Source: Nitrosopumilus sp. (GTDB lineage: Archaea; Thermoproteota; Nitrososphaeria; Nitrososphaerales; Nitrosopumilaceae). Taken from it: a stretch of DNA of 64,000 bases. Of this stretch, positions 4,507 through 27,376 are shown piece after piece. A model generated the notes under the pieces. The model searched no databases. It was not told the origin of the DNA and saw only the letters and a program-made list of their open reading frames with translations. The DNA is taken from assembly GCA_965197525.1 (NCBI GenBank), contig OZ240211.1, positions 1,696,001 to 1,760,000 on the forward strand, given 5' to 3'. A program made the translations under genes and the position numbers. How positions within the stretch are numbered: position 1 is the first letter of the stretch; the number at the start of each line of letters is the position of its first letter.

Positions 4507-4581
4507 GGGCTCATAGTCCAGGTCGGTTATGACGTCGCCCTTACACGGCGAAGATCCGGGGTTCAAATCCCCGTGGGCCCA
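4507..4581 (+). tRNA. tRNA-Val(TAC)
   Basis: Acceptor GGGCTCA/TGGGCCC, anticodon arm TCGCC-CT TAC AC-GGCGA, T arm CGGGG TTCAAAT CCCCG. Confidence 0.95.
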
Positions 4582-4600
4582 CTCCCACTCTGGGTTCAAG

Positions 4601-4761
4601 TCATTTTTTGACGGTCTCTAGGTTCTTTTTGGTCAGTTTTATAGTAAAAACTGACGCATCCGAATGCTTTGCCACTTTGCTATCTAGCGAACAACTATCT
4701 TGCCTTCGCTGCCCTCCTTTGTTATGGTCGCAGATCTATTTCCAATCGTTTCTTTTGCCAT
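4601..4761 (-). pseudogene. small (~53 aa) ORF remnant, paralog of 27011-27178
   Basis: MAKETIGNRSATITKEGSEGKIVVR*IA/KVAKHSDASVFTIKLTKKNLETVKK; one stop and one frameshift. Confidence 0.5.
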
Positions 4762-4812
4762 GATTGCTCATAAAACAGTCGTTTATGGAATTTGTAATCC
4801 GGATGGATAGCC

Positions 4813-5901
4813 TCACATACACTGAAAATTCCTTATAACCATATACCCATGTGACTTGGCATTTTCATAATGCCTGTTTATGATTTTCTCAAATTCCTGA
4901 TCGAGTATGGTTAGTGATTTTTCTAACTTTGGTATCTCTGTTCGATAACTTTTATTTCGATCAATCAGCTTGTCAATGTATTTTCTTGGTGGCAACGCTC
5001 CAAGTTTTCTGCAATTACATTCCTTGCATGCCAGAGTCAGATTCCAAATATCATCCTCTTCAATATAGTCAAATGGTATCACGTGTTCTACCTCTGGCGT
5101 TGGCTTGTCGTATAACTGCTCTCCACAGTAAAAACACTCTTTGAACAACGGAAACAGCATTTTACGATACCTTGTAAGGGAACCCCTCTTTGTGTTCCTG
5201 CCTTCGGTCTTGGCGATTATCTTTGGAAGGCCCACATTGAGCTTTTCCAGAAACCTTGCCCACTCTAAAATCACTGATTTGAGAAGCCATTGATTGTATC
5301 GTTTGAAAAATTCCCTGGCTCTGGGATTCAGATTTATCCCATGCTCCAAGTCAACAGATTTCTTGTTGCTGTGAAACGTTCTATCAATTTTATACTCAAA
5401 GAACAATCTGGCCTCAGTAGCCCTAGTCACTTTAATCCTCTGAAATCTCCATGTCACATTATGAAAACAGTGTTTTTTGATCCGCATTACGCATTTTCGG
5501 ATTTTTTCAGGCTCTTTTCGGCGTATCTGCTTGAATGTCTGTGGATAGTACGCCTTGTCGAATTCTTTTTCTATAATTTTGACAATCATGGGCTTTTTTG
5601 TGGCCTGTAGGGCGTGCTTTATCTTTTTCTTGCATATCTGGGTCCAATAATATTCTAAAAAATACCCGGCAATGGTATCAAAGCTGACATGCGTCTCTGT
5701 GTGCTCTCTGGAATAGTCCAAAAGAAACCTTGCAAATGCAAACTTGTAGGTATTGTCTTTAGAACTACGACTGATTATGTTGAAAAACACCTTTTCAAAC
5801 TCATCATCAGAGATGTCATCAAACCTAATATCCTTGACCATGCTATCTTGTGATAGGATTGGTCGTATATGAAAATATGGCAATGCGAGGGTTCCATCCA
5901 T
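4813..5901 (-). CDS. HNH endonuclease (McrA-like C-terminus), copy 1
   Basis: CFYCG...VEHVIP...WNLTLACKECNCRK zinc/HNH motif; N-terminal NTYKFAFAR. Confidence 0.85.
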   Translation of the reverse strand: MDGTLALPYFHIRPILSQDSMVKDIRFDDISDDEFEKVFFNIISRSSKDNTYKFAFARFLLDYSREHTETHVSFDTIAGYFLEYYWTQICKKKIKHALQATKKPMIVKIIEKEFDKAYYPQTFKQIRRKEPEKIRKCVMRIKKHCFHNVTWRFQRIKVTRATEARLFFEYKIDRTFHSNKKSVDLEHGINLNPRAREFFKRYNQWLLKSVILEWARFLEKLNVGLPKIIAKTEGRNTKRGSLTRYRKMLFPLFKECFYCGEQLYDKPTPEVEHVIPFDYIEEDDIWNLTLACKECNCRKLGALPPRKYIDKLIDRNKSYRTEIPKLEKSLTILDQEFEKIINRHYENAKSHGYMVIRNFQCM

Positions 5902-6061
5902 GTTTTTCTGAATTATTTTGCAGGTAGCTCAATCTCGAGTATTTTTGATTGGATATCTAATCTAAACACTAAATCGTCAAATGTTCTAGAATGTACATGT
6001 CTGCCCAAATCGTAACCGGATCAAAATAGGTTCGTACAAGGATTAGAACTCTGGCTTGATA

Positions 6062-6130
6062 CTATAATATCGTAGAATCGCCGCAGTTGACTGTTTGTAC
6101 ATTGTTGTGCCATTTTTTATGATATGATTC
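6062..6130 (-). pseudogene. 3'-terminal fragment of the MBL hydrolase, truncated by IS3
   Basis: Matches the last ~23 codons of 19088-20584 and ends at the IS3 terminal repeat. Confidence 0.75.
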
Positions 6131-7370
6131 TGATCTGGACCCTCTTTTTGGTACCACTTTCTGCATACTTTTCCGTATGATTCTATCCCTCATTTATTCC
6201 CACCCTCCAATTTGAGAACGAATTCATTGGGAGTGAGATATCCCAATGCGGAGTGAATCCTGTCCTTGTTGTAATCTACAAATGCTTTTGCTAAAACGAC
6301 CTCTGCGTCTTGGAAGCGTGCAAACTCGTGCGGCCAGACATATTCCCTCTTGAGTGTTTCATGGAATGACTCCACATGTCCGTTTTGCTCTGGAGTATTC
6401 TTCCAGATAAACTCGTGTCTTATTCCTAGTGTCTGCATGGATTTCTTGAATTCATGACTGCTGTACTGCGTACCGTTGTCAGTTCTAAGCCTTAGATGTG
6501 AGATATCTTTTACAGACGATACTGCCTTTAGCACAGATTGAACGGCTGTGTGTGCCGTAGCTGCAGCATCAAAGATGTATGATATCCATTCCCTGGTAAA
6601 CACATCTATGACGTTAAAGCAGTAACACCATCCGTCCATGCCGCAATGGATGTATGTCATGTCGGTCTCCCAAAGCTGGTTGGGTGCGTCAGGCTTGAAC
6701 TTTCTGCGTCTTGATGTACGAATTATGTCGTTTTTACTATTTTGAGGCTTATTCCAGCCTATTTTTCTATATATGCGCTGTATTTTTTTACGATTTGTAG
6801 GATGCTCGTCTCTCTTGCAACCTGTGCTGCCATGCGTCTGGTTCCGTACGTGGGCCACTTGGAGGATATCTTTCTTACCTTGTCTGTGACCTCTGCATTT
6901 ATCAGAACATCTCTTGGTTTTTTAGTATAATACCAAGCGTGTTTGGACATTCCGCAATACTGCAAGGCTTTGTTTAGACTCATCTCTTTGCTTGTTTCAC
7001 GTACTGCCTGCATCCTCATCGCTTTGTCCCCTCCAAAGTTTTTTTTTAAAACGTCGTTGGCTACGGTGATCTCACTGATTATACGCTTGAGATTCTCTAC
7101 CTCTTTTGCGTGATTTTTGGTCTTGCTTCCTTTGTTTAGGATGGCCTCCTTGCCTCCCTGCAGAAACTTGTCTTTCCAGTCTTGGAATGTGGTTGGAGAT
7201 ATGTTGTGTTTGCGACACAGCTCGGCAGCAGATATACTGGTATTGATAAATTCCATTACGATTATTGCCTTGTCTTGAGGGTTACGCTTCTTGTTCATAC
7301 CATTCCTCTAATCTCCTGCTCCAAAAAGTATACGGATTTGATCGGTTTCATTATAGAGGGGTCCGCACCA
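6131..7370 (-). mobile_element. IS3-family insertion sequence (~1.24 kb)
   Basis: Imperfect terminal inverted repeats TGATCTGGACCCTC (6131) and TGGTGCGGACCCCTC (7370, minus strand); orfA HTH plus orfB rve; no matching target-site duplication. Confidence 0.85.
6190..7298 (-). pseudogene. IS3 transposase orfA/orfB, frameshifted
   Basis: orfA SAAELCRKHNISPTTFQDWK; orfB WETDMTYI, RTDNGTQY, ESFHETLKRE (DDE); frame break near 6800. Confidence 0.85.
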
Positions 7371-9078: not shown

Positions 9079-9993
9079 TTAGTTGTTCTTTTTTAATCTA
9101 GCAAGCAAATCTATAGTTGCTAAATAACAATAAAACATCCAATAGTAATACACCCCACTATTATAATCTGTTTGCTGTTCATTATTGTGATGCCGTATAC
9201 CAAAATTATTAGCGATTTCAAAAAGTCTTCGTTCTTCATTATTTGGAATATATGATTTTAGATCTTTTCTTAATAGCTCTAACACATCTGCCAGATTCTT
9301 TAATGCGTCACGTTTTTCATTTAATGTTGAATTACCTTTCAAGAATAGTGAGCATGCATGATCTATTCTGCTATCAATTGTTTTAGGAGAGTTATACGGA
9401 GTTGGATTTCGTACTAAATTTTCTAATCCCTTTGATGATGGTAATTCTTCAATATTACCTTCAGCAGTTAGAGTGTATGGTATTTCAAGATGTGGTAGAT
9501 GTTTGTTAAACTCTTCTCTCCATTCACATTTTCCAAAATCGTAATCTGCTTCGTTACCAACATGGATGCCACAATTATTATATTCATGATATGACGATTG
9601 TACAGGTTTGGCTATATGATCATATAAGAACTCGATTAAATCAAATAATGAAAACAAATCTGTATATTTGAAATTGTTGGTTGTAGGAATTAGTGATTCT
9701 CCTCTGTTGCCAAAAGTTATCACTAATTGATCTTTCATACTTAGAGATATGATTCCTGGAACAAATCCAGCATCTACGCAATCATAACCAAACTAGTGTT
9801 GAAAATAACCATCTTGTTGAAATTTGTCATATTGAATTCTGATAATTTTTCTGAAATGTTCTAATGAAATTGAATTCGGGAGTTGGTTTTGTCTATCTGA
9901 AAAATATCTGCGTTTCACGAATATATCCTTTTTATGTAATATTTGTTTTTTAGGAATAAACCAGATCCCGTTAAAATGGAACCGACCGGACAC
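9079..9993 (-). pseudogene. AbiJ/HEPN-like protein interrupted by an in-frame TAG
   Basis: ORFs 9793-9993 and 9079-9738 are in frame (GYFQH*FGYDCVDAG); C-terminal IANNFGIRHHN resembles an AbiJ-type HEPN RH motif; likely start GTG 9918. Confidence 0.55.
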
Positions 9994-10370
9994 GCATCAA
10001 TATAGTTCTTTTTTCGGTTCCATTACGCCAACGATGGCGGTGTCAAAAGGCAGAGTGGTGTTGACTGCTTGGAGGGCCTGACAGGCCATATACTAACCGT
10101 AGATAAACATCTGATCCTATTCACAAGCGCAGACAGGTACAATTACAACTTTGTAATTAATAGCAAGCCCAAGGGTGGAACGTACCAAATCCGGCCCGGC
10201 TGTGCGGCATTTTCAGGTTCCATGACATCAATGATGGCAGTGTAGGTAGGGCAAAATGATGTCAACTGTCTGGGGCTCTGACAGGTCACCTGCGCAGCTT
10301 TGTAGACAGTGCTGGATGTTGTATACGCAAACTATTCTTTAAAAAGGTATTTTCATTCGTTTACTGTGCT

Positions 10371-10565
10371 TCATTTCAGTGTGTAGTCATACCGATCAAA
10401 ATGAACACCATATTCATTAAAAATCTCTTTCGCTCTTTCTTCAATATCTTCCCAAACCTTGGCATCGTCTTCGCATTGATGAGTCAGAACGCCATTATAC
10501 TTTTTCAGATTCTGGATTTTCCCTATAAATCCAATACTATCATGCGCGCATTCATAACACATCAT
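10371..10565 (-). CDS. hypothetical protein or fragment
   Basis: 64-aa ORF with protein-like composition, same strand as neighbours. Confidence 0.35.
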   Translation of the reverse strand: MMCYECAHDSIGFIGKIQNLKKYNGVLTHQCEDDAKVWEDIEERAKEIFNEYGVHFDRYDYTLK

Positions 10566-10665
10566 ATCAGACTATCAAAAGCAGGTTGTTATGGAAAAAT
10601 ATTACACTAATTTTTCATCCTTGGCATAGATCTCTAATTTTAGAACCAAATGAGAGCAAACTTCA

Positions 10666-11319
10666 TTATTCCACGCAATCATTGAATGAATCCCCATTAA
10701 TAAGATGGATTGTACCTATACATGGATCATAAATTTTTCTAAAGTCTTCTGGTCTGCTTATTGTCTTTATTCCTGCAAATGCACGAATGTTAGCATTTGG
10801 AAATGCATCTATCAGTCGATTTGCAGCTCCGATGAATGTAGATCCTCTTGTTATAAAATCGTCTATAAGCAAGATTTCATCCGGTTCAGAAAGTTCTTTT
10901 TGAACTACCATTGTATCATAATGCTCTTGAGCTTTTGGCCTATTTGCACTCGAACTGGTATGAGATTTTCGTAAAGGTTTTATCCGTTCAAGACATGAAC
11001 TAACTTTTTTTCCCAGACCGTTATTTACTAGAGCAGTTGCCAAGCGTTGTGGAACCCAAAGTGTATTTGCTTTAGTGAGAGAACTGTTCGGAGTCGGAAT
11101 AAGAATCGGATCGGTGTTAAAGAAATGAGCAAAAGGAAGTCTTTCCAAATTATTCTTAATTCCTTGTGCTATGTACTCAGTCATCAGAATGTTGTCTTTT
11201 TCCAAATATTCGTCAGTCTTCAATTTTGCTTTGAATGTCCTTGAACGAGCCTCTTCGTCTGTAGTTCCGCGAGGGGAATATGTTAGAAGAGACCCAAATT
11301 CAATATTAGAAATTTTCAT
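10666..11319 (-). CDS. type I phosphoribosyltransferase (ComF-like / ShosT-like)
   Basis: PRPP-binding motif ILLIDDFITRGSTF; LIPTPNS; directly downstream of dprA-like gene. Confidence 0.8.
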   Translation of the reverse strand: MKISNIEFGSLLTYSPRGTTDEEARSRTFKAKLKTDEYLEKDNILMTEYIAQGIKNNLERLPFAHFFNTDPILIPTPNSSLTKANTLWVPQRLATALVNNGLGKKVSSCLERIKPLRKSHTSSSANRPKAQEHYDTMVVQKELSEPDEILLIDDFITRGSTFIGAANRLIDAFPNANIRAFAGIKTISRPEDFRKIYDPCIGTIHLINGDSFNDCVE

Positions 11320-11330
11320 AGCTATTATTA

Positions 11331-12029
11331 TTAAAATACATCAATTACCTCGAACTGTGTTGGCAATACTTCAAGAATGTCAAACGGATTGGATAGTTCT
11401 ATTGCTCCGTGTTCAATCATTTCTGTTGGCCACTCCAATTCTTCATTATTCACAACAGATTTCCAAATGAATAACGGTCTTCCCATTCTAAGAGTTTCCC
11501 ATCCTTGATGTTTTGAACCACTTGTTTTTCCAGCTTCTACAATTACAGAAGCGTCAGAAATAAGTGCCATTGTTCTGTTTCGTATCACAAAATTTTTTCT
11601 AGTAATTGGGTAGCCGGTTGGAAATTGTGAAACTACAAGATGATTTTTCATTAATTCTTGTTGAAGCTCATAATTTATTTTTGGATATGTTTTGTCTAAT
11701 GGTGTACCTATTACAGCAATAGTTTTTCCATTCATGTTTAATGCTGTTACGTGTGCAGCAGTATCGATCCCTTCAGCCAGTCCACTAACAATAGTTACTT
11801 TATTTTCAACCAGCGTCTTTGTAATTTTTTGAGTATTCTCAATGCCTTGTGGGGACGCTTTTCTGGAACCAATGACTGACACTTTCGGGCACGGGAGCGG
11901 AATTTTCAAAGAACCCTGTACAAATAGTGACTCTGGATCAGCTTTTGATTCAATATCATTAAGTGCACGGCCTAGAAGTTTTGCAGCAGTTATTGACAAA
12001 TATTCTCTTCTCTCAAGCATTACTATCAC
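11331..12029 (-). CDS. dprA: DprA/Smf-family protein (Rossmann core only; ShosA-like)
   Basis: VIGSRKAS, IVSGLAEGIDTAAH, IAVIGT, FVIRNRTMALIS, VVEAGKTSGS-type motifs. Confidence 0.85.
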   Translation of the reverse strand: MIVMLERREYLSITAAKLLGRALNDIESKADPESLFVQGSLKIPLPCPKVSVIGSRKASPQGIENTQKITKTLVENKVTIVSGLAEGIDTAAHVTALNMNGKTIAVIGTPLDKTYPKINYELQQELMKNHLVVSQFPTGYPITRKNFVIRNRTMALISDASVIVEAGKTSGSKHQGWETLRMGRPLFIWKSVVNNEELEWPTEMIEHGAIELSNPFDILEVLPTQFEVIDVF

Positions 12030-12214
12030 ATCTTACAATATCTAATCTTTTTAGTACTTTCATGATCTTGTATTGAACTGTACATAATATATAATAAATT
12101 TGTCTAATTAGATAAGATATGCCAATTTTTGGAAATATTGAATCGTAGGAAAAGGAATAATTCAATGAAAAATAAATAGTGTTATGGGTATTTTGTATAG
12201 TTTTAGATTGAATG

Positions 12215-12997
12215 CTAAATTATTTTTCTCCAACGCAGAAATTTTGCTAATTCTAAAGGAGGCATGAACACAATTAAATGCGGGTTTCCTCTAGCCATTC
12301 CTTCGAGTTGCATTTCAGAAATAACACTATCTACAGGTTCCAATGCAGATACAAGAATTACATAGTCGGGGTTGGTTCTATTATGGGCCTTTGATACTTG
12401 GTAAGAAATAGATTCCCAATTCAGTTTTTTCAATTTTTGACTTCCGCCTAAACTCTTATAGCCTTTTACAACTACAGCAAAAGAAGATTTTTTACTGTTC
12501 ATGTCCAAGTAAAAATGTTCTATATCTGCAACTTCATGTGCAGAATCTTTCCCTCTCCTAGGAATTGGAGATGCCTCTTTTTCTCTTAATGCATTTCTTA
12601 ATGCCTCTTGAATAACACTTTCATAGATTTTTGAAAGCGTTTCATCAATATTCTTTATATCCAAATGTTTTATCTCTTTAATTTCTGGAAATACATCATA
12701 GATTGTAAGTGGTATGTGTGTCTTATCTTGAGGTATAGTGATTTGTTTTTTCTCAAGATGTTTGAATAATTTCTGTAAATATTCCAGTTTTTTAACTCGG
12801 TTGAATCTAAAGAAATTTGTTTTTATCCTTCGCATTTTACTAACACACCATTCTAAATCTCTCTTTTCACTGAGACATTGATAATAAATTCCCGATATTT
12901 GTGAGACATAATCATCATCATCTTTATATCCTTCTTGTTTGTTAATTCGGAGAATCTCAGATAGAATTGTTATTTCCGTTTCTTTTTTACTTGTCAT
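12215..12997 (-). CDS. putative PD-(D/E)xK restriction-like nuclease, last gene of the HTH operon
   Basis: ESVIQEAL / EVADIEH / AVVVKG / QVSKA arrangement fits motifs I-IV of the fold; start overlaps upstream HTH gene by 11 bp. Confidence 0.55.
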   Translation of the reverse strand: MTSKKETEITILSEILRINKQEGYKDDDDYVSQISGIYYQCLSEKRDLEWCVSKMRRIKTNFFRFNRVKKLEYLQKLFKHLEKKQITIPQDKTHIPLTIYDVFPEIKEIKHLDIKNIDETLSKIYESVIQEALRNALREKEASPIPRRGKDSAHEVADIEHFYLDMNSKKSSFAVVVKGYKSLGGSQKLKKLNWESISYQVSKAHNRTNPDYVILVSALEPVDSVISEMQLEGMARGNPHLIVFMPPLELAKFLRWRKII

Positions 12998-13370
12998 TGT
13001 TTATCTTTCTTAATAATTTCGACAAAGCCTCGCTTAACCTTATAATTTTGTCAATCTTCGTTTTTTGATAAATTGTAGTGGTACTAACGCTTTTTAGTTC
13101 AATTATGCCCATTGCAGTAAGTTTAGCAATTTCTCTAGATACGTTTGATTGCTTCATTACTAATTGTTTTGCAATATCCGATACAGTTTTGTTTCCATCT
13201 ATTTCCAAAAACACGTTTGCGGCAACTGTTTGTCTTTTAAAGAACACCATCATGTCCTCACGAATTTCTTTTGACTGGGGTCTGATTAACCATGGCATGA
13301 AACTATCCATAGATTCTACCCTTTGTAAAATCTTATCTATTTTTTCATGAAGTTCTTTTGATTCTGTCAC
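12987..13370 (-). CDS. winged-HTH protein (array member 9)
   Basis: VFLEIDGNKTVSDIAKQLVMKQSNVSREIAKLTAMGIIE. Confidence 0.8.
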   Translation of the reverse strand: MTESKELHEKIDKILQRVESMDSFMPWLIRPQSKEIREDMMVFFKRQTVAANVFLEIDGNKTVSDIAKQLVMKQSNVSREIAKLTAMGIIELKSVSTTTIYQKTKIDKIIRLSEALSKLLRKINNDK

Positions 13371-13378
13371 ATTATCAC

Positions 13379-13672
13379 CTAAAATCTCTGCTCGTGTATT
13401 TTGTTATCATTTTTTTCGATAGTTTTGATCAGACCTTTGCGTCGTAGGCTTCCCAGCACTGTGTTTACATACTTTGAATCTTTGTGTATATTTTTCATAA
13501 TGTCGGCAGTTGTATTCGTTCCATTACATAATTTGTAACCAGATTCTTCCACAGAACCAGATTTTAGTAATTTTAGTTTTATTTCTTCAATTTTGTCTTG
13601 GTTAGACAAAAGCAATAGTCCTCTGATATCCTCTAATAAATCACATATGTTTGATAGCTTGTCTTCAGACAT
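13379..13672 (-). CDS. winged-HTH protein (array member 8)
   Basis: YKLCNGTNTTADIMKNIHKDSKYVNTVLGSLRRKGLIK. Confidence 0.75.
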   Translation of the reverse strand: MSEDKLSNICDLLEDIRGLLLLSNQDKIEEIKLKLLKSGSVEESGYKLCNGTNTTADIMKNIHKDSKYVNTVLGSLRRKGLIKTIEKNDNKIHEQRF

Positions 13673-14051
13673 TTCGATTCTCCTTGTGTCTAGGTTGATC
13701 TTTTAGAGATTCTTCCTTCTTTTCCTCAGACGTACGGATGTTTTCCAATAAACCTATCCACGATGATGGAGCGTAATCAAGATTTCGTGTAGGATGTTTG
13801 TTATATTGCCTTTCAACTAAATCAGCATCTTTGAAAATGTTTAAGAAAATACACACTACATGATTTATCTTTCCGATGATTTTTGCAATGTCATCAGATG
13901 GTCTTGCCCCATCAAGCAAAACCTGCATTTTTTTTCGATCATCACTTGTGGCATATTTTGCGAGTTCCTTTGTAATAGCTGATCCATTGCCAATTGTAAT
14001 GCTACTTGAAATTTTCTTGGATTCTGTCAGAATCACTTCGTCGTTAGGCAT
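13665..14051 (-). CDS. winged-HTH protein (array member 7)
   Basis: VLLDGARPSDDIAKIIGKINHVVCIFLNIFKDADLVE. Confidence 0.7.
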   Translation of the reverse strand: MPNDEVILTESKKISSSITIGNGSAITKELAKYATSDDRKKMQVLLDGARPSDDIAKIIGKINHVVCIFLNIFKDADLVERQYNKHPTRNLDYAPSSWIGLLENIRTSEEKKEESLKDQPRHKENRNV

Positions 14052-14442
14052 TTTGTTTTACCTCAGTTGTAGGTTGTTCTTCTGGTTGAGTTTGTTTGGT
14101 TTCAGTTTTTACTTCTAGAGACTTTATTCCAAAATCTTCCAAGTCAAATGAGCGTTGAAACCTCTTCCCTCCTTTATTTGAAATGGATTCACCTAAACCA
14201 AGTTTTTCCCACGATTTCCAGCGTTGGTGCACTGTTGCGGATGCTATGCCCTTTACAATCTTTGCAATTTCCTGTGTTCCTTTAGTTCCATCGCTTAATT
14301 GGTAGACTTGTTTTCTAACATCATCACCATTGAATTCATCTTCTAGAACGGGTTTGATATCTTTGATTCCAGATACTTTAATCCATTTTAAAATCTCTTT
14401 CAACACTTTAGTTTGGTCACTGTCATTACTCATGTCTTTCAA
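14044..14442 (-). CDS. winged-HTH protein (array member 6)
   Basis: VYQLSDGTKGTQEIAKIVKGIASATVHQRWKSWEKLGLGE. Confidence 0.75.
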   Translation of the reverse strand: MKDMSNDSDQTKVLKEILKWIKVSGIKDIKPVLEDEFNGDDVRKQVYQLSDGTKGTQEIAKIVKGIASATVHQRWKSWEKLGLGESISNKGGKRFQRSFDLEDFGIKSLEVKTETKQTQPEEQPTTEVKQNA

Positions 14443-14791
14443 CCTCTCCTTGCTCTGTTTGTGTATCGTATTGTCTCCTTGGTTCTTGATTTGTAATTAT
14501 TTCCATCGATTCGAAATCAAATGCTTTTGTGAATCGATGTCCACTGCTAGCAATAGTATGTTTTCCAAAATCCAACAAGATCCATTTTTTCCACCAATCA
14601 TCTATTGCCGAATGGTCTACACCTGTGAGTTTTCCAACATCGTGGATAGTTCTTTGTCCGTCATTGTATGCTTGTTTTCTCTTGTCATCGTTGATATCGG
14701 ATTCAATCACAGTTATTAGTTGGTTTATACCAAACAAATGTAACCAATTAGCCATTTCTCTTCCGCGTGCAATCTGTTCCAAATTACTCAT
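14426..14791 (-). CDS. winged-HTH protein (array member 5), paralog of member 6
   Basis: KQAYNDGQRTIHDVGKLTGVDHSAIDDWWKKW...RFTKAFDFE parallels member 6 (RWKSW...RFQRSFDLE). Confidence 0.7.
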   Translation of the reverse strand: MSNLEQIARGREMANWLHLFGINQLITVIESDINDDKRKQAYNDGQRTIHDVGKLTGVDHSAIDDWWKKWILLDFGKHTIASSGHRFTKAFDFESMEIITNQEPRRQYDTQTEQGEVERHE

Positions 14792-14797
14792 CTTCTA

Positions 14798-14965
14798 TTA
14801 CCTTTTTTTTGTTTTATTTTTTGAAATAAATATGTATAATGTTTTTGTACTCATTCCTGCTGCTTTTGCAACGTCTGCATGTGAAATCCCGTTTTGGATT
14901 AACAAGAGTATCAGTAGTTTTTTTATCGACTCAAGTTCATTTTGGATTTCATTATTTTCTGCCAT
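14798..14965 (-). CDS. 55-aa HTH protein (array member 4; below ORF-track cutoff)
   Basis: Manual translation MAENNEIQNELESIKKLLILLLIQNGISHADVAKAAGMSTKTLYIFISKNKTKKR; fills the gap between members 3 and 5. Confidence 0.75.
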   Translation of the reverse strand: MAENNEIQNELESIKKLLILLLIQNGISHADVAKAAGMSTKTLYIFISKNKTKKR

Positions 14966-15197
14966 CTTTCTTCTCCTTTTCGTTTGTCTTCTTTATTCCA
15001 AATTTTACTTGCTTCAGATGGTTTGCAACATCCTTTGAGAATTTTCCCAGAATCCTTACCATGTTGCCTGTTGACAATCCAACTGAATCCATGAACAGAA
15101 GTTGATCTTTTCGTTCGATTTTTCCATATCCAGGTTGCTGATCTAACATCATCCTAATCAAAATATCCAAGCGTTTTGTAATTCTATCTCTATTCAT
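14952..15197 (-). CDS. short HTH protein (array member 3)
   Basis: Start re-placed at ATG 15197 (8-bp overlap with member 2): ITKRLDILIRMML...DQLLFMDSVGLSTGNMVRILGK. Confidence 0.7.
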   Translation of the reverse strand: MNRDRITKRLDILIRMMLDQQPGYGKIERKDQLLFMDSVGLSTGNMVRILGKFSKDVANHLKQVKFGIKKTNEKEKKDGRK

Positions 15198-15420
15198 CTT
15201 CGTCAGCCTTTTCCTTTGATTTTTTCTTCCGATGTAATTGAACTCGTACGTTGTTTGGTGTTCTACCCAGCATTGATGCAATTTCTGCTACACCCATTCC
15301 TGCGTTACTGAGTAGTTCTATCTGTTCGTTAAGAGGCTTGTGCTTAACAGCATTTAATGCAAGCAGTCTAGACATTACTGTGAGCTTCTTATCGATTGAT
15401 TTTAAAAGATCCTCACTCAT
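15190..15420 (-). CDS. short HTH protein (array member 2)
   Basis: LKSIDKKLTVMSRLL...EQIELLSNAGMGVAEIASMLGRTPNNVRVQL. Confidence 0.8.
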   Translation of the reverse strand: MSEDLLKSIDKKLTVMSRLLALNAVKHKPLNEQIELLSNAGMGVAEIASMLGRTPNNVRVQLHRKKKSKEKADEDE

Positions 15421-15646
15421 TTTTCTTCTCCTTTTTTAAAACAGATTTTTCTTTAGCGACTAATCCTGGAGAAATATTCAAAAGCTTTGCAACTTCATTA
15501 TAGTTAAAATCTAATGAAGATAATTGATAAATCTTCTCACGGTTACTAGACTCTTGAAATTTTGTAGGATTTAACAAAATGCTGATTATGGCATCAAGAC
15601 GTTTGTTAATGCTGGTTACATCATTATCATCAGGTAAATTTCTCAT
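15413..15646 (-). CDS. short HTH protein (array member 1)
   Basis: SINKRLDAIISILL...EKIYQLSSLDFNYNEVAKLLNISPGLV; ATG 15646 preferred from TATA spacing. Confidence 0.75.
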   Translation of the reverse strand: MRNLPDDNDVTSINKRLDAIISILLNPTKFQESSNREKIYQLSSLDFNYNEVAKLLNISPGLVAKEKSVLKKEKKNE

Positions 15647-15665
15647 ACAATTAATTAGGTTCAAG

Positions 15666-15675
15666 TATATTTAAA
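15666..15675 (-). promoter_or_regulatory. archaeal TATA box of the HTH operon (leaderless transcript)
   Basis: TTTAAATATA on minus strand ending 20 nt before ATG 15646. Confidence 0.5.
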
Positions 15676-16070
15676 CATTATTATTAAATTTACCTTTTAA
15701 TAATTTTAGTTTAAAATACATTAAAAAATGTATTAGGTTTTGAATTTATCGCATTTGTAATAAAAACTTCCAAGAATAGATTAATGAATTTTCTTTCTTT
15801 CTATTAACTCTTGATATGCTGAGACAAGTATCGTCATAAAAAGATGTTCCATCAATAGATCATATGTTGTTCTAGCCACTTCAAAATACCTGTAAACTCA
15901 ACCAATAAGAAACACAATTTCTAAAATTTGATGTTCGTTATTATATCCTATAGAATGAATATTGCTAGAATCTCCCAGTTGTCATGTTACAAGTATAGTA
16001 TTTTCAGGTACTTTGAAGAATCACGGGTAACACCTGCATTCTTTCTTTATGCGTCAATTATATCAAAACT

Positions 16071-16370
16071 CTAAAGATTTCCATCTTGAACAACTCTGCC
16101 TGCTTTGATGCTCTTCCCAATATCCACAACATCTTTGCAGTACTTACTTTTCATTTTCCAAAACTGATCAACCAAGTATACACTTTATCTAAATCATAAT
16201 TTTCTCCATAATCACGTAATACTTTGAACATGCTAACAGTTGCTGCTTTATCAGATAGAAGAGTAATTCCTGTAGAATAATTAACTGATGTGATAAGATT
16301 AGTGATGCTTCTTTAACTATGAATGTATGTAAAAATATCTTTGTCGTAATTCAGGTGATGGATTGACCTC
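16071..16370 (-). pseudogene. degraded gene, DUF1889-like
   Basis: RSITNLITSVNYSTGI...MFKVLRDYG...VYTWLISFGK*/KYCKDVVDIGKSIKAGRVV with stops and a frameshift; family call from recalled motif. Confidence 0.3.
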
Positions 16371-16504
16371 TTTGTAAATATGTGCTTAGCACACTTTAAT
16401 TTGAATGATGCAATCCGAGCTGCTGCATTCCTGTGTCTAGCGCACTGGCAGACGACTGCAGATTCCGATCCATTAAAAGCAGTCTATATTGAGGTGGTAA
16501 AAGG

Positions 16505-16621
16505 ATGAGAGATATTGGAATAGACATCAGCAGGAAGAAGTGTACAGTATGCGTAATGGACAACGTGATGCCACAGAACAAATTCCATGATTCGATACGA
16601 TCTTTTCTGTCGGCTGATTGA
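16505..16621 (+). pseudogene. IS110-family transposase 5' remnant
   Basis: MRDIGIDISRKKCTVCVMD matches the IS110 DEDD N-terminal GID motif; stop after 38 codons. Confidence 0.55.
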
Positions 16622-17581
16622 TCGCACTGTAAAATTGACTGTTGCTTAACAGTACGGAACGTTTTATGAGACGGTTTGCCAGACACTTGCTATCCCAGAA
16701 GGGATTAAAGCTGATTTGTAGAACAATGTACAACCTCATTTTTTATTTCTGCAATAATGAAATTCGTAAAAAATAACAAGTTGTTTTGTGCGCCAAAACC
16801 TACGCAAGAGTAATAAGGCACGTGATTTTATATACATCCAGTATGAAACCCAGTACGAGATTTCCCCTCAAATGTATAAAACAACATGAAAAAGTAGCAT
16901 TTAATTTGTGTATATTAGGAAAATATTTTCTTAGATATTGTAATTGCAATACCTAGCAATGTTATTACTCCTATTATTAAGAATAGTTCACCTGTCCCAT
17001 ATGTGTTTTACAAAATTTGGATTTACACCTAGACGACTTACTGATTTTGTATGAATATGACCGGGACAGAAGGGTAAGGCAATCAAATGATTTGCTGACC
17101 GCTCCCGGCAAATTTCGTGCGTGTGGAACCTGAAAATGCCGCGTTATCAAGGTAAATCCGGTCGGCTCTGCTGTTGCTACTACTGTTGCCTGATGTATCA
17201 CATGATTGCCCAATCACACCTGCGGTGGGTGTGGGATCCAATATTGCCGCCGTTTTTCCTCTAGGCATCCTCTCTGGTCTTTTTACTAATTACAATAGGC
17301 CTGCGCACATATCTCTGTCAGTCCAGCAGTATCATAGTGGTGAAATGGCTATGTTTTTGATATAACAGCATCGATCCTGACACAGTTTTTGTCCTGGTGC
17401 GCCTTGTATGCTGACAGCTACCGAAAATGCTGACAGTGTACAAGCTAGATCTGATACATTAGGCTAAAATTATTGCAAGGTGATATCTAGCATGCACGTG
17501 GGTAATTAAAAATAGGAAGGTAGGGATACTGTAAGCGTCCCAATCGCCTTCTGCCATCTATGATGGACTTGAACCCGACCT

Positions 17582-17607
17582 GGGTTCAAATCCCCGTGGG
17601 CCCACTC
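17582..17607 (+). repeat. att-like duplication of tRNA-Val 3' end
   Basis: GGGTTCAAATCCCCGTGGGCCCACTC identical to 4559-4584 (26 bp). Confidence 0.9.
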
Positions 17608-17637
17608 TCATTTGGGTTCAAATCCTTTTTTGATGGT

Positions 17638-17783
17638 CTATAGGTTATTTTTGGTCAGTTTTATAGTAAAAACTGACGCATTCGGATGCTTTGCCACTTT
17701 GTTATGGGGTGAACGACTACCTTGTCTTCACTGCCCTCCTTTGTTATGGTCACAGGTCTATTTCCAATTGTTTCTTTTACCAT
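17638..17783 (-). pseudogene. small ORF remnant, second copy
   Basis: MVKETIGNRPVTITKEGSEDKVVVHPIT/KVAKHPNASVFTIKLTKNNL*; same frameshift as the copy at 4601-4761. Confidence 0.5.
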
Positions 17784-17834
17784 GATTGCTCATAAAACAG
17801 TCGTTTATAGAATTTGTAATTCGCATGGATGGCC

Positions 17835-18923
17835 TCACCTACACTGAAAATTCTTTATAACCATATACCCATGTGACTTGGCATTTTCATAATGCCTGTT
17901 GATGATCTTCTCAAATTTCTGATCGAGTCTAGTTAGTGATTTTTCTAATTTTGGTATCTCTGTTCGATAACTTTTGTTTCGATCAATCAGCTTGTTAATG
18001 TATTTTCTTGGCGGCAACGCTCCAAGTTTTCTGCAATTGCATTCCTTACATGCCAGAGTCAGATTCCAAATATCATCCTCTTCAATATAGTCAAATGGTA
18101 TCACGTGTTCTACCTCCGGCGTTGGCTTGTCGTATAACTGCTCTCCGCAGTAAAAACACTCTTTGAACAATGGGAACAGCATTTTACGATACGTTGTAAG
18201 GGAACCTCTCTTTGTGTTCCTGCCTTCAGTCTTGGCGATTATCTTTGGAAGGCCTACATTGAGCTTTTCCAGAAACCTTGCCCACTCTAAAATGACTGAT
18301 TTAAGAAGACATTGATTGTATCGCTTGAAAAATTCCCTGGCTCTGGGATTCAGATTTATCCCATGTTCCAAGTCAACAGATTTCTTGTTGCTGTGAAATG
18401 TTCTATCAATTTTATACTCAAAGAACAATCTGGCCTCGGTAGCCATGTTCACTTTAATCCTCTGAAATCTCCAGGTCACATTATGAAAACAGTGTTTTTT
18501 GATCCGCATTATGCATTTTCGGATTTTTTCAGGTTCTTTTTGGCGTATTTGCTTGAATGTCTGTGGATAGTATGCCTTTGTGAATTCTTTTTCTATAATT
18601 TTGACAATCATGGGCTTTTTTGTGGCTTGTGGAGCGTGCTTGATCTTTTTCTTGCATATCTGGGTCCAATAGTATTCTAAAAAGTATCCGGCAATAGTAT
18701 CAAAGCTGACATGCGTCTCTGTGCGCTCCCTGGAATAATCCAAAAGAAATCTTGCAAATGCAAACTTGTAGGTATTGTCTTTAGAACTACGACTGATTAT
18801 GTTGAAAAACACCTTTTCAAACTCATCATCAGAGATGTCATCAAACCTAATATCCTTGACCATGCTATCTTGTGATAAGATCGGTCGTATATGAAAATAT
18901 GGCAACGCAATGGCTACATCCAT
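17835..18923 (-). CDS. HNH endonuclease, copy 2
   Basis: 362 aa; 17 substitutions versus copy 1 by manual count; HNH/zinc motif intact. Confidence 0.85.
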   Translation of the reverse strand: MDVAIALPYFHIRPILSQDSMVKDIRFDDISDDEFEKVFFNIISRSSKDNTYKFAFARFLLDYSRERTETHVSFDTIAGYFLEYYWTQICKKKIKHAPQATKKPMIVKIIEKEFTKAYYPQTFKQIRQKEPEKIRKCIMRIKKHCFHNVTWRFQRIKVNMATEARLFFEYKIDRTFHSNKKSVDLEHGINLNPRAREFFKRYNQCLLKSVILEWARFLEKLNVGLPKIIAKTEGRNTKRGSLTTYRKMLFPLFKECFYCGEQLYDKPTPEVEHVIPFDYIEEDDIWNLTLACKECNCRKLGALPPRKYINKLIDRNKSYRTEIPKLEKSLTRLDQKFEKIINRHYENAKSHGYMVIKNFQCR

Positions 18924-19087
18924 GTCTTTCTAAATTATTTTGCAGACAACTCAATCTCGAGTATCTTTGATTGGTCATACTTGATCTGACAACTAAGATC
19001 ATCGCATGTTATAGAATATACATGTCTGCTACAAGCCGTAACCGGATCAAAATAGGTTCACATAAGGACTGGAATTCTGGCCTGATA

Positions 19088-20584
19088 CTATAATATCGTA
19101 GATTCGCCGTGGTTGACTGATTGTACATTGTTGTGCCATTTTTTATGGTATGATTCGTTTTCAAGGGAGGTATGAATTGGGATCAGTTTTTTTGCCTTTG
19201 TACCGTCAATTACACGCTTTATCTGTTGGCCGTCACCATGACCTGAGACATGCACCTGATTCCAGTCCCTCTCACTTGTAATCAATCCAAAGTGTTCAAG
19301 CCAGTTTTTGATCGTCTCTTGCCTGAATTCCATTTCTGCGTCAAACGGCTCCGTCAGTGACCTGATATAGCTAGAACCGTTGCTTGGTTTGATGTCTATT
19401 AACTCTTGTAGTTTGAAATCACTCAATGACAGCATTATCTCATCTTGTTTTTCAGATACGTCACGGTAGTCGATACTGTTGTCATATTCAAGAAAATCCC
19501 TTGCCCAACTACCATAATCCTCGCGTAAAAGTTTCTTGGTAAATCGATTTCTGTTCTTATCAACTAGTCCCCATTCGCCCTTTGGAATGTATATCCTGAT
19601 GTGTCTGTCATTAGGACTAGGGTATATCCCGTGCAAGTCAGCAGATTCGTCAAATAGTTTTAGCAGATATGCTTGCTTTAGATCTATTGCCAGATATCTG
19701 TCTGCAGCCTTTGCTGCAAGATAAAATGATTCAAGCCTGTCCAAATCTCGTATTGGATAGCCACACACAACGAGTTTTTTGGCATTACTTGCAATCTGGC
19801 TCACTTTCTCTTCTATGTCATACTCTGTCATGGAGGGATTCTGATCTATTCTGGTTCCCTCACACAATAACAGATCAAGTGATGCATCTGCACATTTGTC
19901 AACAAATCTTTCAGTATCTTCCTTACGCCTGCCATGAAATCGGAGATCTGCAGTATTTGCAATCATACCCTTTGATGTCTCCAAGAGAAAGCCATGAACT
20001 CCGGAGATCGAATGATCCACCGGCAACGGAGTCACCCTGATATCGCCAACGGAAAACTCTTTGTTACTTTCAAATACTTGTATGTTCCGAGGTATTTTAT
20101 TGCCTTTTTCTTTTGCCATCTTGCCTTTTGTAGGACCTCTCTTGATTTTATGAATCTGAAACTTTTCTGTCATCTCGATGTACTGTTCACCGACACCTGT
20201 ATCATCAAAGTTCTGCATGATTAGTCTTGATTCCTCTGAACAGTAAATTGGAATATCTTCTCTTAGATATTTTATGTATGCACAATGATCTACATGCGCA
20301 TGTGTTAGAAGAATCCCGTCGATCTCAGTATCTTCCCGTCCTCCTATTCCCATATGTCTTGCATAATCTCTCCTGTAGAGGCCTTTGATATTTGGCAAGA
20401 TTCCAAGCTCAATCATGTCGACTAGGCTGTTTGAGCCCCTGGCCTTCATGTATTCTGAAAAATATCTATTTTCTGCACTAAAACTCATGCCAAAATCCAT
20501 GAAAATTTTTGTATTTCTATCCTCTACTAGGAACTTGTTTCCACCAATATCTTTAACTCCCCCATGAAAGGTAATAGAGGTCAT
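19088..20584 (-). CDS. metallo-beta-lactamase fold hydrolase (RNase J / beta-CASP-like)
   Basis: FHGGVKDIGGN, DFG, LTHAHVDH, VDHS, TADLRFHG, EGT, HVSGH, LIPIHT motifs. Confidence 0.85.
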   Translation of the reverse strand: MTSITFHGGVKDIGGNKFLVEDRNTKIFMDFGMSFSAENRYFSEYMKARGSNSLVDMIELGILPNIKGLYRRDYARHMGIGGREDTEIDGILLTHAHVDHCAYIKYLREDIPIYCSEESRLIMQNFDDTGVGEQYIEMTEKFQIHKIKRGPTKGKMAKEKGNKIPRNIQVFESNKEFSVGDIRVTPLPVDHSISGVHGFLLETSKGMIANTADLRFHGRRKEDTERFVDKCADASLDLLLCEGTRIDQNPSMTEYDIEEKVSQIASNAKKLVVCGYPIRDLDRLESFYLAAKAADRYLAIDLKQAYLLKLFDESADLHGIYPSPNDRHIRIYIPKGEWGLVDKNRNRFTKKLLREDYGSWARDFLEYDNSIDYRDVSEKQDEIMLSLSDFKLQELIDIKPSNGSSYIRSLTEPFDAEMEFRQETIKNWLEHFGLITSERDWNQVHVSGHGDGQQIKRVIDGTKAKKLIPIHTSLENESYHKKWHNNVQSVNHGESTIL

Positions 20585-20934
20585 TCTAAATTATTCAAAA
20601 TAACATTGAATATAACTATAAAGTCAAAATTTGGGGTTTACTCCGATATGATACGTTGTTTCTTACTCTTGCTGTTCAAAAAAATTAGAAAAAATGTGAG
20701 ATATGACTATTGTAAGTTCCAACCGCTTTCTGCTGTTGTTGTGGGTTTGAATCCTGCCCAGACTCCAATTCCTGTGACACTCTTGATCCCAATCCTTTTT
20801 TACTGTCTCTTGTATCGGACGAAATGGGGGTCAGAAGACCTCCAACCATGTTATGTTCAGTCTCCAATATCTGAAAATTAGAAATTAAATCAGATCCCTT
20901 GATCTGAAAAACTAAAATCATCAAATGTTCTAGA

Positions 20935-21696
20935 ATGTACATGTCTGCCCCAAACCGTAACCAGATCAAAATAGGGGCTAGAGTCTCAATTGAAACAAAA
21001 AAGAATCAGGGTACCGGTAAATTGACTGAAGGCACAGTAAAGACAATTCTAACTTCCTCTCAGATTCATCCTCATGGAATAAAGGTCAGCTTAGAAGGTG
21101 GTCAAATAGGTCGAGTAAAGCAGCTAGAGGATCAAAATCAGACTAGGGAAACTAACAAACCAATAGATTTGGACAAAATAGAGATACCAAAAACAGAAGA
21201 TGCAAGTAATGAGTTCAAAGAGTTCTACCAATATGACAAAAAAATACCGAATACAGATGACAAACAGGCAATAGGGGGAATAAAGCGTTCAGTACAGGAA
21301 CGATTTGCCACAGCAGTATGTTCCTTTGGTAATTCGTATGAGGGAGGATTTGTGTATCTGGGCATAAACTCTGATGGAGTTATAGTCGGATTGGAACAAG
21401 ATATGAAACTTGGAAAATTCTCAGATTATAGTGATTCATTTGCAAATCACATAGTAGACAAATTAGAGGATTTGTTAAAAGACAAGGTGTTTGTAACTAG
21501 TAAAATAAGGATAAAGTTTCGTCAGATTGAGAATAAAACAATATGTATAGTACATGTCTTGCCTGCAGATCGACCAATATATCTGCACACAAAATCAAAG
21601 ACGTTTTTTGTCAGAGGACCAGCACCCAAGGCAGTCAAATTTGACATGGATCAACAGTTCAAATATATCAAAGAACGATTTCCAAGATATGGTTGA
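20935..21696 (+). CDS. YwbE (DUF2196) - Schlafen/AlbA_2 fusion
   Basis: N-terminal NQGTGKLTEG...ILT...HPHGIKV...GRV (YwbE); C-terminal EFKE...AVCSFGNSYEGGFVYLGINSDG (AlbA_2). Confidence 0.75.
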   Translation: MYMSAPNRNQIKIGARVSIETKKNQGTGKLTEGTVKTILTSSQIHPHGIKVSLEGGQIGRVKQLEDQNQTRETNKPIDLDKIEIPKTEDASNEFKEFYQYDKKIPNTDDKQAIGGIKRSVQERFATAVCSFGNSYEGGFVYLGINSDGVIVGLEQDMKLGKFSDYSDSFANHIVDKLEDLLKDKVFVTSKIRIKFRQIENKTICIVHVLPADRPIYLHTKSKTFFVRGPAPKAVKFDMDQQFKYIKERFPRYG

Positions 21697-21705
21697 GGTA
21701 TACTA

Positions 21706-22662
21706 TTGACCAAGCTTTATCACAGTCCCATGTTTGATGAAATACGAGATTATTTTGAAAAAAGCAATCCAGATAATACAATTTACATTTTTGTACCATA
21801 CATCAAAACAACAGTATTAGAGAAGCTACTAGATGGTCTTCCCAATCCCAAAGTCATTGTCACAACTTGGAAGCCTAGAGATATTTTATTTGGTTCTTCT
21901 GAACTTGAACTGTATCCATATTGTCGTGATCAAAAAATCACATTGTATCTAAGCCCAAACATACACCTCAAGGTATACTCTGTGGAGTTGGAAGATGCCA
22001 TAATTGCAACCGGAAATGTGTCTAATCGAGGCCTTTTACCTAATGGAAACTATGAGGTTGGTGCAAACATTGAATCCCTCGATAATGATGATAGGTTGGT
22101 CTTTGGGAAGATACTCCATGAGGCAAGACTGGTAGATGATGTAATGTATGACAAGCTCACAGAATGGTATGAGAACAACAAGGTAGAGGCAGACAAGTAT
22201 CCTAGTCTGGAAGATATTGTGCCTCTGCCAGAAAAAGATGATTTTTCAGTGGCTGCATTGCCTATGACTCGTTCTGTAGATGAACTGGTATCGGGATACT
22301 TGAGGATTGTTGCAGGCAAGCGCCCATCTGAGGATTCTGAGATTGTCGCATGCGTGTTTCATGATATCGCAAATTATGATATATCTAAGGGACTATCAGA
22401 ATCTGAATTTATTGCAGAACTGACTCGAAGCTTTTTTGCACATCCGTTTATTCAAAGAATTGATGAATTTATTGCGCCAGAGGCATACTTTGGGAGAATA
22501 AAGGAATGGATTCAAGACAATTGCACTGATGTGCCTGTTCCAAGCAGACGAGAATTGACTGGAAACGTCCAAGTTTTATTGGAATGGTTTGAAAGGCTAG
22601 GAGATGGCAAATACAAGATAGATGTTCCAGGCAGACATTCACAAAGAATTAAAAAACTATAA
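21706..22662 (+). CDS. phospholipase D-family nuclease (single HKD-like motif)
   Basis: IHLKVY...AIIATGNVSNRGL...NYE; TTG start. Confidence 0.7.
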   Translation: MTKLYHSPMFDEIRDYFEKSNPDNTIYIFVPYIKTTVLEKLLDGLPNPKVIVTTWKPRDILFGSSELELYPYCRDQKITLYLSPNIHLKVYSVELEDAIIATGNVSNRGLLPNGNYEVGANIESLDNDDRLVFGKILHEARLVDDVMYDKLTEWYENNKVEADKYPSLEDIVPLPEKDDFSVAALPMTRSVDELVSGYLRIVAGKRPSEDSEIVACVFHDIANYDISKGLSESEFIAELTRSFFAHPFIQRIDEFIAPEAYFGRIKEWIQDNCTDVPVPSRRELTGNVQVLLEWFERLGDGKYKIDVPGRHSQRIKKL

Positions 22663-22679
22663 TCAAAACTCACTCAATA

Positions 22680-24299: not shown

Positions 24300-24309
24300 C
24301 CAAGTCCAC

Positions 24310-26088: not shown

Positions 26089-26112
26089 ACCCTCTGCATA
26101 CCCTTTTTTATA

Positions 26113-26952: not shown

Positions 26953-27010
26953 GATACTAGAAATTTATTACATCATATAACTATTTAATATCAGACAATA
27001 ACTTGGAAGT

Positions 27011-27178: not shown

Positions 27179-27315
27179 GCGGTTTTTCAATATCCTGTGA
27201 TTTTATAGGTTTATCGGTAGTTTTTTCCCAAAATTCATTTGAAACTTAGATATTGTGCTTGGTAAATTGGGAATTCTACCAAAACATATTATACTTCTTT
27301 AGTGTAGTATATGTG

Positions 27316-27376
27316 CCTATATTCGAATCCTCTAGCCTAACATAGTTAGGGACCTAGGGGCTCATGTGAATATAGG
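27316..27376. ncRNA. candidate structured RNA / long hairpin 3' of DUF3800-like gene
   Basis: Nested stems CCTATATTC/GAATATAGG (9 bp), CCTCTAG/CTAGGGG (6 of 7), CCTAAC/GTTAGG (6 bp). Confidence 0.4.

Follow-up and report, generated by a model that had tools for sequence, protein, structure and literature searches.

Antiviral immunity is far less charted in archaea than in bacteria, in which most of the catalogued systems have been found. One recurring design relies on effector-associated domains (EADs), small conserved helical adaptors fused at the N terminus to interchangeable effectors such as restriction endonucleases (REases), HNH nucleases, caspase-like CHAT proteases and others. Nucleoside triphosphate (NTP)-dependent conflict systems with such domains were reportedly set out by Kaur, Burroughs, Iyer and Aravind in eLife in 2020. 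Here we analyse a cassette of ten genes in a 64,000-nucleotide stretch of DNA from Nitrosopumilus sp. (hereafter, the window; GenBank assembly GCA_965197525.1, contig OZ240211.1), which spans positions 1,696,001–1,760,000 of an archaeal genome that is complete in a single contig of 2.21 Mb. The presence of archaeal amoA in this genome identifies the source organism as an ammonia oxidiser. The cassette comprises nine consecutive genes for small helix-turn-helix (HTH) proteins, the last of which belongs to a family that we call Z, followed by a gene for a 260-amino-acid effector, T, that consists of an N-terminal domain (N-domain) and a C-terminal enzyme domain (C-domain). Like the EAD systems, it joins a conserved N-terminal adaptor, the N-domain of T, to interchangeable effector domains. 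With the type IV restriction enzymes of the Mrr/MspJI/AspBHI type (Mrr_cat), it shares the core fold of the C-domain—in which T keeps the glutamate of helix 1, a strand aspartate and a strand lysine—and the absence of a methyltransferase partner. With type II toxin–antitoxin (TA) pairs and pairs of a C protein and a restriction enzyme, it shares a small HTH gene that overlaps and precedes the gene for a potentially toxic enzyme, as well as an accessory, mobile and patchy occurrence. The best reading of the sequence data is that the ten genes would form an archaeal conflict (defence or addiction) cassette, of which we found no previous description in the literature searched.

Recurrence and composition of the cassette

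The layout recurs in approximately 70 metagenomic and Bathyarchaeia loci. When arrays of such genes were searched for and their terminal genes tabulated, co-oriented arrays were found again in Nitrososphaeria-like and Bathyarchaeia contigs, with Z and then T at the end. The readable contigs with T homologues have tightly packed, co-oriented small genes directly upstream (L002, L003, L005, L008, L010, L011, L013 and L014), and L004 is a decayed copy of the cassette. A metagenome scan added 69 loci, which were annotated with family hidden Markov models (HMMs). Once redundancy was removed, 55 loci contained the T N-domain together with 450 nt or more of upstream sequence; in all 55, the gene immediately before T is Z, and in 36 a gene of the Q family precedes Z. 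The four T-like matches without Z all cover the C-domain only. Complete arrays (n = 34) hold 2–8 HTH genes each, with family K present in 29, Q, S and R in 24 each and G in 10, and the nine HTH genes of the window form the largest array seen. In these sequence comparisons, not just the last two genes but also the HTH families upstream of them recur as part of the layout. The first-pass annotation of this DNA had taken the genes for one functional unit and not for a chance run of regulators, which is borne out by the conserved array-plus-effector layout and by the invariable linkage of Z to the effector.

Of 401 species genomes of the phylum, three carry T and ten carry K, and strong Z matches fall in exactly the three genomes that have T. 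Among 61 close relatives, only the window's own genome carries T. Judged by this distribution, the cassette is rare, patchy and accessory, and probably horizontally mobile.

Clustering of the small proteins across loci with blastp yielded the recurring families K, S, R, Q, Z, G and I. Family HMMs that were built from distant loci only, with the window excluded, gave the order S S S S K K R Q Z T for the window. The earlier count of nine HTH genes stands in so far as these HMMs placed all nine, whereas Pfam HTH matches were obtained for five (genes 1, 2, 4, 8 and 9), with solely gene 9 above the cut-off (HTH_5, 27.4 bits); in Pfam, genes 3, 5 and 7 had no HTH match and gene 6 had just a weak match to a terminase small subunit. 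For the window genes, NCBIfam, PHROGs and PADLOC returned no more than generic HTH similarity. The arrays draw on two HTH superfamilies: a short type that resembles sigma region 4 (S) and a type that combines a helix with a winged helix (K, R, Q and G).

The first four genes of the window, all on the minus strand like the rest of the cassette, are S-like to varying degrees. Gene 1 (15413–15646; 77 amino acids) is of a diverged subfamily, S1 (S-HMM, 5e-11; weak Pfam HTH_38 match), and encodes an N-terminal amphipathic helix and a three-helix HTH; it has orthologues in two loci (L002_1 and L014_1) and a ratio of non-synonymous to synonymous substitution rates (dN/dS) of 0.23. Gene 2 (15190–15420; 76 amino acids; S-HMM, 7e-25) encodes an S-family protein with a sigma-70 region-4-like HTH and a basic tail, the Pfam match of which (Sigma70_r4_2, 1e-5) scores 25.5 bits against a cut-off of 25.7. 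Gene 3 (14952–15197; 81 amino acids; S-HMM, 5e-8) encodes a diverged S-like HTH without a Pfam match or an orthologue in the blastp clustering. Gene 4 (14798–14965; 55 amino acids) encodes a short, weakly S-like HTH of subfamily I (S-HMM, 3e-5; Pfam HTH_23, 1e-4), with orthologues L002_3 and L014_3 and three tandem copies in L037.

The remaining HTH genes are of the longer type. Genes 5 (14426–14791; 121 amino acids; K-HMM, 1.5e-20) and 6 (14044–14433, counted from the ATG at 14433; 129 amino acids; K-HMM, 6e-40) belong to the K family. The product of gene 5 has a long N-terminal helix, a winged HTH (wHTH), a degenerate C-terminal motif of the FDLEDFGI type and then a charged tail. An AlphaFold model of the gene 6 product (predicted local distance difference test (pLDDT), 77) places a helix at residues 3–34, a wHTH at 38–94, a short helix at DLEDFGI and a disordered charged tail, and the nearest folds are those of ArsR, MarR and Fur. 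Gene 7 (13665–14051; 128 amino acids; R-HMM, 8e-35) is of the R family, with a wHTH, ..ATxxERKK..LIDGK.. and a C-terminal LDYxPxxW. Gene 8 (13379–13672; 97 amino acids; Q-HMM, 1.5e-38; Pfam TrmB, 7.6e-5) is of the Q family, with a wHTH, an ..LSNQDK.. helix and a C-terminal HEQRF, and gene 9 (12987–13370; 127 amino acids; Z-HMM, 2.4e-14; Pfam HTH_5, 3e-6) is of the Z family. Across loci, the family motifs read ..ILKWxKFAG..LSDG..FDLEDFGI for K, ..ERKK..LIDGK..LDYxPxxW for R and ..LANQDK..HEQxF for Q. By hhalign, the homology of Z and K extends over the full length of both (94%; E = 1e-7), and K, R, Q, G and Z are thus old paralogues of one helix-plus-winged-helix protein.

All ten open reading frames (ORFs) reported in the first-pass annotation are present on the minus strand between 15646 and 12215, and the junctions are as it described them: overlaps of 8, 8 and 14 nt, a gap of 6 nt, three overlaps of 8 nt, a gap of 8 nt and an overlap of 11 nt, the last between gene 9 and the effector gene. 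Homology to relatives favours the start codons ATG 15646 for gene 1 and ATG 14433 for gene 6. A TATA-like box read from the sequence (TTTAAATATA; 15666–15675, minus strand) lies approximately 25 nt upstream of the first ATG, and the closest relative, L002, has the TATA-like ATAAATATA at the same distance from its first ATG. In this AT-rich surrounding region, TTTAAATATA is a plausible promoter, which would give a leaderless transcript or one with a short leader. The genes are under purifying selection (dN/dS of 0.13–0.37 against the L002 orthologues, for the genes with an estimable dS). In contigs from two other studies, the array is covered at approximately 90% identity, and the indels listed for them are mostly multiples of three or compensating pairs, a pattern that, coming from contigs, is weak support. 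A variant of approximately 91% identity occurs in soils and sediments (runs X5 and X7), and none of the sequencing runs listed as containing the sequence was of RNA.

The effector T (12215–12997, minus strand; dN/dS, 0.16) consists of the helical N-domain (residues ~1–100), an FPE linker and a C-domain of the PD-(D/E)xK fold (residues ~110–260); an AlphaFold model (pLDDT, 88) shows five helices in the N-domain (residues ~1–90 in the model) and an alpha/beta C-domain. A search of 5.8 billion proteins returned 40 relatives, all unannotated, and E126, Q130, D158, E160, K178 and Q200 are invariant or near-invariant in the T alignment. The modelled C-domain matches AspBHI (4oc8), AF1548 (1y88) and MspJI (4f0p) with VIA Z scores of 9.0, 8.3 and 8.0, respectively, over 112–134 residues, with Avs4 and FokI as further structural matches. 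The best Foldseek matches of T are MspJI and AspBHI (E = 1e-3), and in the ESM Atlas it matches Mrr_cat clusters (template-modelling (TM) score, 0.41–0.43). An Mrr/MspJI-like PD-(D/E)xK alpha-beta-beta-beta-alpha-beta core is supported for the C-domain at the level of the model. The earlier description of the gene as nuclease-like therefore holds for the fold (AspBHI, MspJI and Mrr_cat) but not for the sequence, as T has no match to Pfam Mrr_cat (PF04471) at E ≤ 1. Searching the sequences of the PDB with the T family profile gave chance-level matches only and no relative.

No family in Pfam, NCBIfam, PHROG or PADLOC covers T, K or R. In PADLOC-DB v2, T has a weak partial match to PDC-M04B (5e-4, 59 residues) and Z has generic wHTH similarity to Csa3, CasR and PDC-M05A, and the cassette proteins match no catalogued defence system. 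The best matches of the T N-domain are rod-virus capsid bundles and HRDC domains at Z scores of 6–7, below the level that is meaningful for helical proteins, and an ESM Atlas feature search with this domain gave no usable match. Neither the structure model nor the fold comparison revealed a recognisable DNA-binding domain in T. The prediction of a complex of Z and T scored 0.00, which we counted neither for nor against binding. The idea that Z and the T N-domain contain the same domain was rejected (hhalign probability, 0.1%).

Exchange of the enzyme domain

A search of 1.84 billion cluster representatives with a profile of the N-domain returned 80 proteins with at least six kinds of C-domain: 33 are Mrr-like, and the others comprise two or three groups with HNH domains, one group each of CHAT proteases and NERD-like proteins, a single AAA ATPase, a single adenylate/guanylate cyclase and several unknowns. 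Genome G287 has the array K K HEPN S R K Q Q Z, followed by a 201-amino-acid protein that joins the N-domain to an HNH domain, and in genome G222 the array K S S K' Z leads to an N-domain with a different PD-(D/E)xK domain that has the canonical D..QIK. In the loci with available context, Z or the array is kept upstream of effectors with HNH (L017), AAA (L046; K S R Q Z), cyclase (L045; Z) and NERD-like domains (L047; Z). Because Z is kept across effector types, it tracks the effector N-domain and not the catalytic domain. On these domain comparisons, the nuclease is not the defining part of the cassette; it is one of several interchangeable domains behind a conserved N-domain. The original proposal that the HTH proteins recruit or restrain the nuclease has to be generalised, as the nuclease is interchangeable: a swappable effector would be controlled through Z and the effector N-domain.

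In addition to T, many cassettes carry a putative RNase arm. Genes for Swt1-like HEPN proteins with an RxxxxH motif lie inside or just after the arrays of L004 (6961–7554), L008 (5757–6545) and L017 (5315–6103), and are also found in the metagenome loci L048, L051, L052, L060, L065, L068 and L086. In another genome of the same genus (G032), an array of the order R Q K K S (L038; 7154–11311, minus strand) is followed by a gene for a 281-amino-acid Swt1-like HEPN protein as the sole effector, with no Z or T. This array is located directly downstream of, and co-oriented with, a gene for a 410-amino-acid Cas1 (Pfam, 6e-59) and could be casposon cargo; among the other ORFs in the 14 kb around cas1, Pfam found no polymerase domain in the eight largest. 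A further stretch, L043, held no array genes.

Other arrays also lack Z and T. The array of L037 has no effector, and homologous proteins of 273–276 amino acids are encoded in or behind the arrays of L040 (7070–7891, minus strand) and L041 (5481–6311, minus strand). In these proteins, a wHTH-like region at the N terminus is followed by a coiled-coil-like middle and by a C-terminal part, the beginning of which resembles helix 1 of a restriction endonuclease. They match no Pfam family except for a weak DnaD_N match and may represent a further effector type. Given that arrays without Z and T exist, the HTH families are a broader toolkit. The N-domain search also returned a T-family protein of 501 amino acids (P0056) that continues into a cupredoxin/plastocyanin domain (Pfam, 1e-8), which may be a gene-call fusion or a genuine odd architecture.

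Genomic setting

In the window, the cassette lies inside a segment of approximately 13 kb that runs from a tRNA-Val gene (4507–4582) to a 27-nt copy of the tRNA-Val 3' end (17579–17605), and each end of the segment is followed by a paralogous HNH gene. The tRNA-Val 3' end and an approximately 1.5-kb module with a gene for a 362-amino-acid HNH protein (4556–6130) are repeated at 17579–19156, with the copies 13.02 kb apart and 79–91% identical. This arrangement suggests that two islands were integrated in tandem at tRNA-Val. A search of the genome for integrases (Phage_integrase, PF00589) found a single gene, outside the window, and none was recognisable in the island. The surroundings had been described as an otherwise decaying island, which fits the stretch at 15.7–17.6 kb that is without a long ORF but not the ShosTA pair, the AbiJ-like gene, the HNH gene and the insertion sequence (IS), which are intact.

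The ShosTA-like pair (10666–12029, minus strand) lies directly downstream of the cassette and consists of a gene for a DprA-like ShosA (PADLOC ShosA, 3.3e-74) and a phosphoribosyltransferase-like gene (217 amino acids, minus strand) without a Pfam match; as ShosTA was not found adjoining related cassettes, it is an independent neighbour. The same island holds an IS3-type transposase gene (6190–7298, minus strand) of two overlapping ORFs with HTH_28 and rve domains, and a gene for a 219-amino-acid protein (9079–9738, minus strand) with a weak AbiJ_NTD4 match below the cut-off. Further on from ShosTA in the window, the second island (19088–33692) holds genes that, by their Pfam labels, encode an MBL-fold/RMMBL nuclease, a DUF2196-Schlafen/AlbA_2 protein, a superfamily 2 (SF2) helicase (ResIII), a phosphoadenosine phosphosulfate (PAPS) reductase-like protein, an 1,108-amino-acid protein without a Pfam match and a class-V aminotransferase, and that together look like a phosphorothioation-type defence cluster.

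One contig of sequencing run X1, which is probably from the source sample, joins position 9981 to 17158 and omits the 7.2 kb that contain ShosTA and the HTH cassette. The depths were 8 for this contig, 8.5 for the insert-bearing contig and 17 for the left flank, and the 7.2-kb stretch may be polymorphic for presence and absence. The joint comprises 35 letters only, at short high-copy sequences (a 19-nt inverted match, 10204–10222 and 17124–17142), and may instead be a repeat artefact.

Related cassettes often adjoin known defence genes. Their neighbours include SIR2/ThsA-like genes, a dGTPase gene with a gene for a CapP-like peptidase, AbiEii, GmrSD/HEC-05 and Old/AriA-like genes, and further Mrr_cat, PIN-ATPase, VapC and transposase genes. 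A scan of IMG/VR with the T profile found no viral contig.

Possible function and relation to known systems

The cassette has several hallmarks of conflict systems: it is rare and patchy, it occurs in islands beside defence genes, and it combines a constant adaptor with exchangeable nuclease, protease, cyclase and ATPase domains. We give slightly less than an even chance to the reading in which the ten genes represent one instance of a mobile conflict cassette of archaea, with Z as adaptor and with abortive or restriction-type antiviral defence as the most likely role. The HTH proteins would bind nucleic acid and also each other, the latter by way of the amphipathic helix at the N terminus and of short conserved motifs at the C terminus, and those other than Z would sense or regulate. 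Z, with which T is translationally coupled, would dock on the N-domain, linking the sensing or regulatory layer to the effector and keeping the effector inactive. The effector—which, in the window, would cut DNA—would be released or activated by an invader-derived trigger, either foreign DNA or interference with the HTH proteins, and what is sensed would be set by the size and make-up of the array.

Several observations weigh against this reading. Among k-mers of 7–9 nt in the 250 nt upstream of 35 arrays, none exceeded shuffled controls as a candidate for a shared operator. Some cassettes, such as L003, are flanked by housekeeping genes and have no defence gene beside them, and the association with defence islands is no more than suggestive. 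The (E/Q)xK position of the nuclease motif is V176 in all 31 aligned T sequences (V-V-K); the L018 variant has the canonical D...QIK. E160 and E126, both invariant, may substitute for the missing E/Q residue, and the nuclease activity of T is predicted from residue conservation. Array size (2–9) and composition vary between loci, which speaks against a machine of fixed stoichiometry; because composition and order vary, a fixed version of the heteromeric complex envisaged in the first-pass annotation is unlikely.

A bolder version of the same idea, which we hold only tentatively and with more doubt than confidence, is that the cassette represents a new class of archaeal immunity, in which a combinatorial repertoire of HTH proteins (two superfamilies, 2–9 per cassette) would be the sensor and would signal, by way of the adaptor Z, to an effector with a constant docking domain and an exchanged killing or signalling domain. 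The HTH proteins would then read foreign nucleic acid or act as bait for viral factors that target DNA-binding proteins, and HEPN would provide a second arm.

Invariant linkage of Z to T, the overlap of a small upstream HTH gene with the gene for a larger enzyme in the manner of type II TA pairs, and the location in a tRNA-bounded island adjoining another TA-type system (ShosTA) would each also fit an addiction (TA-like) module of an integrated element. Z would be the DNA-binding antitoxin or repressor, T the toxin and the other HTH genes extra regulators or accumulated paralogues that stabilise the element and do not sense invaders. We consider this unlikely: the Z family stays constant while the catalytic domain of T changes completely, so that Z cannot be a neutraliser of one particular catalytic domain, and any such action on T would have to go through the N-domain that the effectors share. 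In addition, K, S, R and Q are present in 70–85% of complete arrays, in lineages far apart from one another, a recurrence that one would not expect of dispensable passengers, and many cassettes lie outside recognisable mobile elements.

It is quite improbable that the cassette encodes a multi-subunit restriction-like enzyme, the HTH proteins of which would be trans-acting recognition subunits that differ in the sequence or modification they prefer and bring an Mrr-like nuclease to target DNA, by analogy with type IV enzymes that have a cis-fused reader domain. The best structural matches of the T C-domain are indeed type IV catalytic domains (AspBHI and MspJI) and Mrr_cat clusters, T is without a recognisable DNA-binding domain, and no methyltransferase is found in the window cassette or in any related locus, as type IV logic expects. 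However, relatives combine the same N-domain and Z with CHAT protease, cyclase and AAA domains; as these cannot be DNA-targeted cutters, DNA delivery is not the general logic. An alignment of orthologous K proteins also shows recognition helices that look conserved, not diversified, across the compared loci.

A regulatory operon of a mobile element, with transcription factors for integration, excision or replication and a nuclease for processing the element's own DNA, is very unlikely. Archaeal viruses and integrated elements typically have overlapping operons of small HTH and wHTH genes (PMC6563490, PMC4158269), the window copy lies in a tRNA-Val island and the same-genus array L038 directly follows cas1, but in the loci compared the cassette is not accompanied by any gene for replication, integrase, capsid or conjugation, T was not found on IMG/VR viral contigs, and protease, cyclase and HEPN effectors are unsuited to the processing of element DNA.

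Returning to the conflict cassette, no named system matches it in Pfam, NCBIfam, PHROGs, PADLOC or the literature searched, in agreement with the initial impression. Virus- and plasmid-associated wHTH proteins, MarR arCOGs and PD-(D/E)xK nucleases have been described (Makarova 2014 and 2019 (archaeal dark matter) and Krupovic 2019 (thaumarchaeal integrated elements)), and such an HTH array is not mentioned in these studies. A search for studies of adaptor-plus-effector systems returned bacterial systems only, and no description of a cassette of an HTH array, Z and an N-domain effector was found in the literature searched. If the HTH array is a sensing layer, it would be a new wiring of recognition to effector, and would offer small modular DNA binders as well as a portable pair of docking partners, Z and the N-domain. 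The copy in the window is a good starting point for biochemistry, as it has the largest array seen and belongs to the complete, single-contig genome of an ammonia oxidiser.

The cassette differs from each of the described systems that it resembles. Compared with the Mrr/MspJI/AspBHI enzymes, T has no Mrr_cat sequence match and, throughout its clade, a valine at the acidic/Q position; its N-domain is an all-helical bundle and not a wHTH or SRA reader; and it is always preceded by separate HTH genes, with a nuclease domain that can be exchanged for non-nuclease domains. In contrast to the small HTH proteins of type II TA systems, Z tracks the N-domain and precedes REase, HNH, AAA, cyclase and NERD-like effectors alike. 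The layout also adds one to eight further paralogous HTH genes to what is seen in TA and C-protein pairs, and, unlike C-protein-controlled restriction–modification systems, the cassette has no cognate methyltransferase in the window or in related loci. Compared with EAD systems, no gene for a STAND or other NTPase is conserved in the cassettes and the adaptor has no second copy on a partner protein; the partner layer is instead an array of HTH proteins, and the lineage is archaeal.

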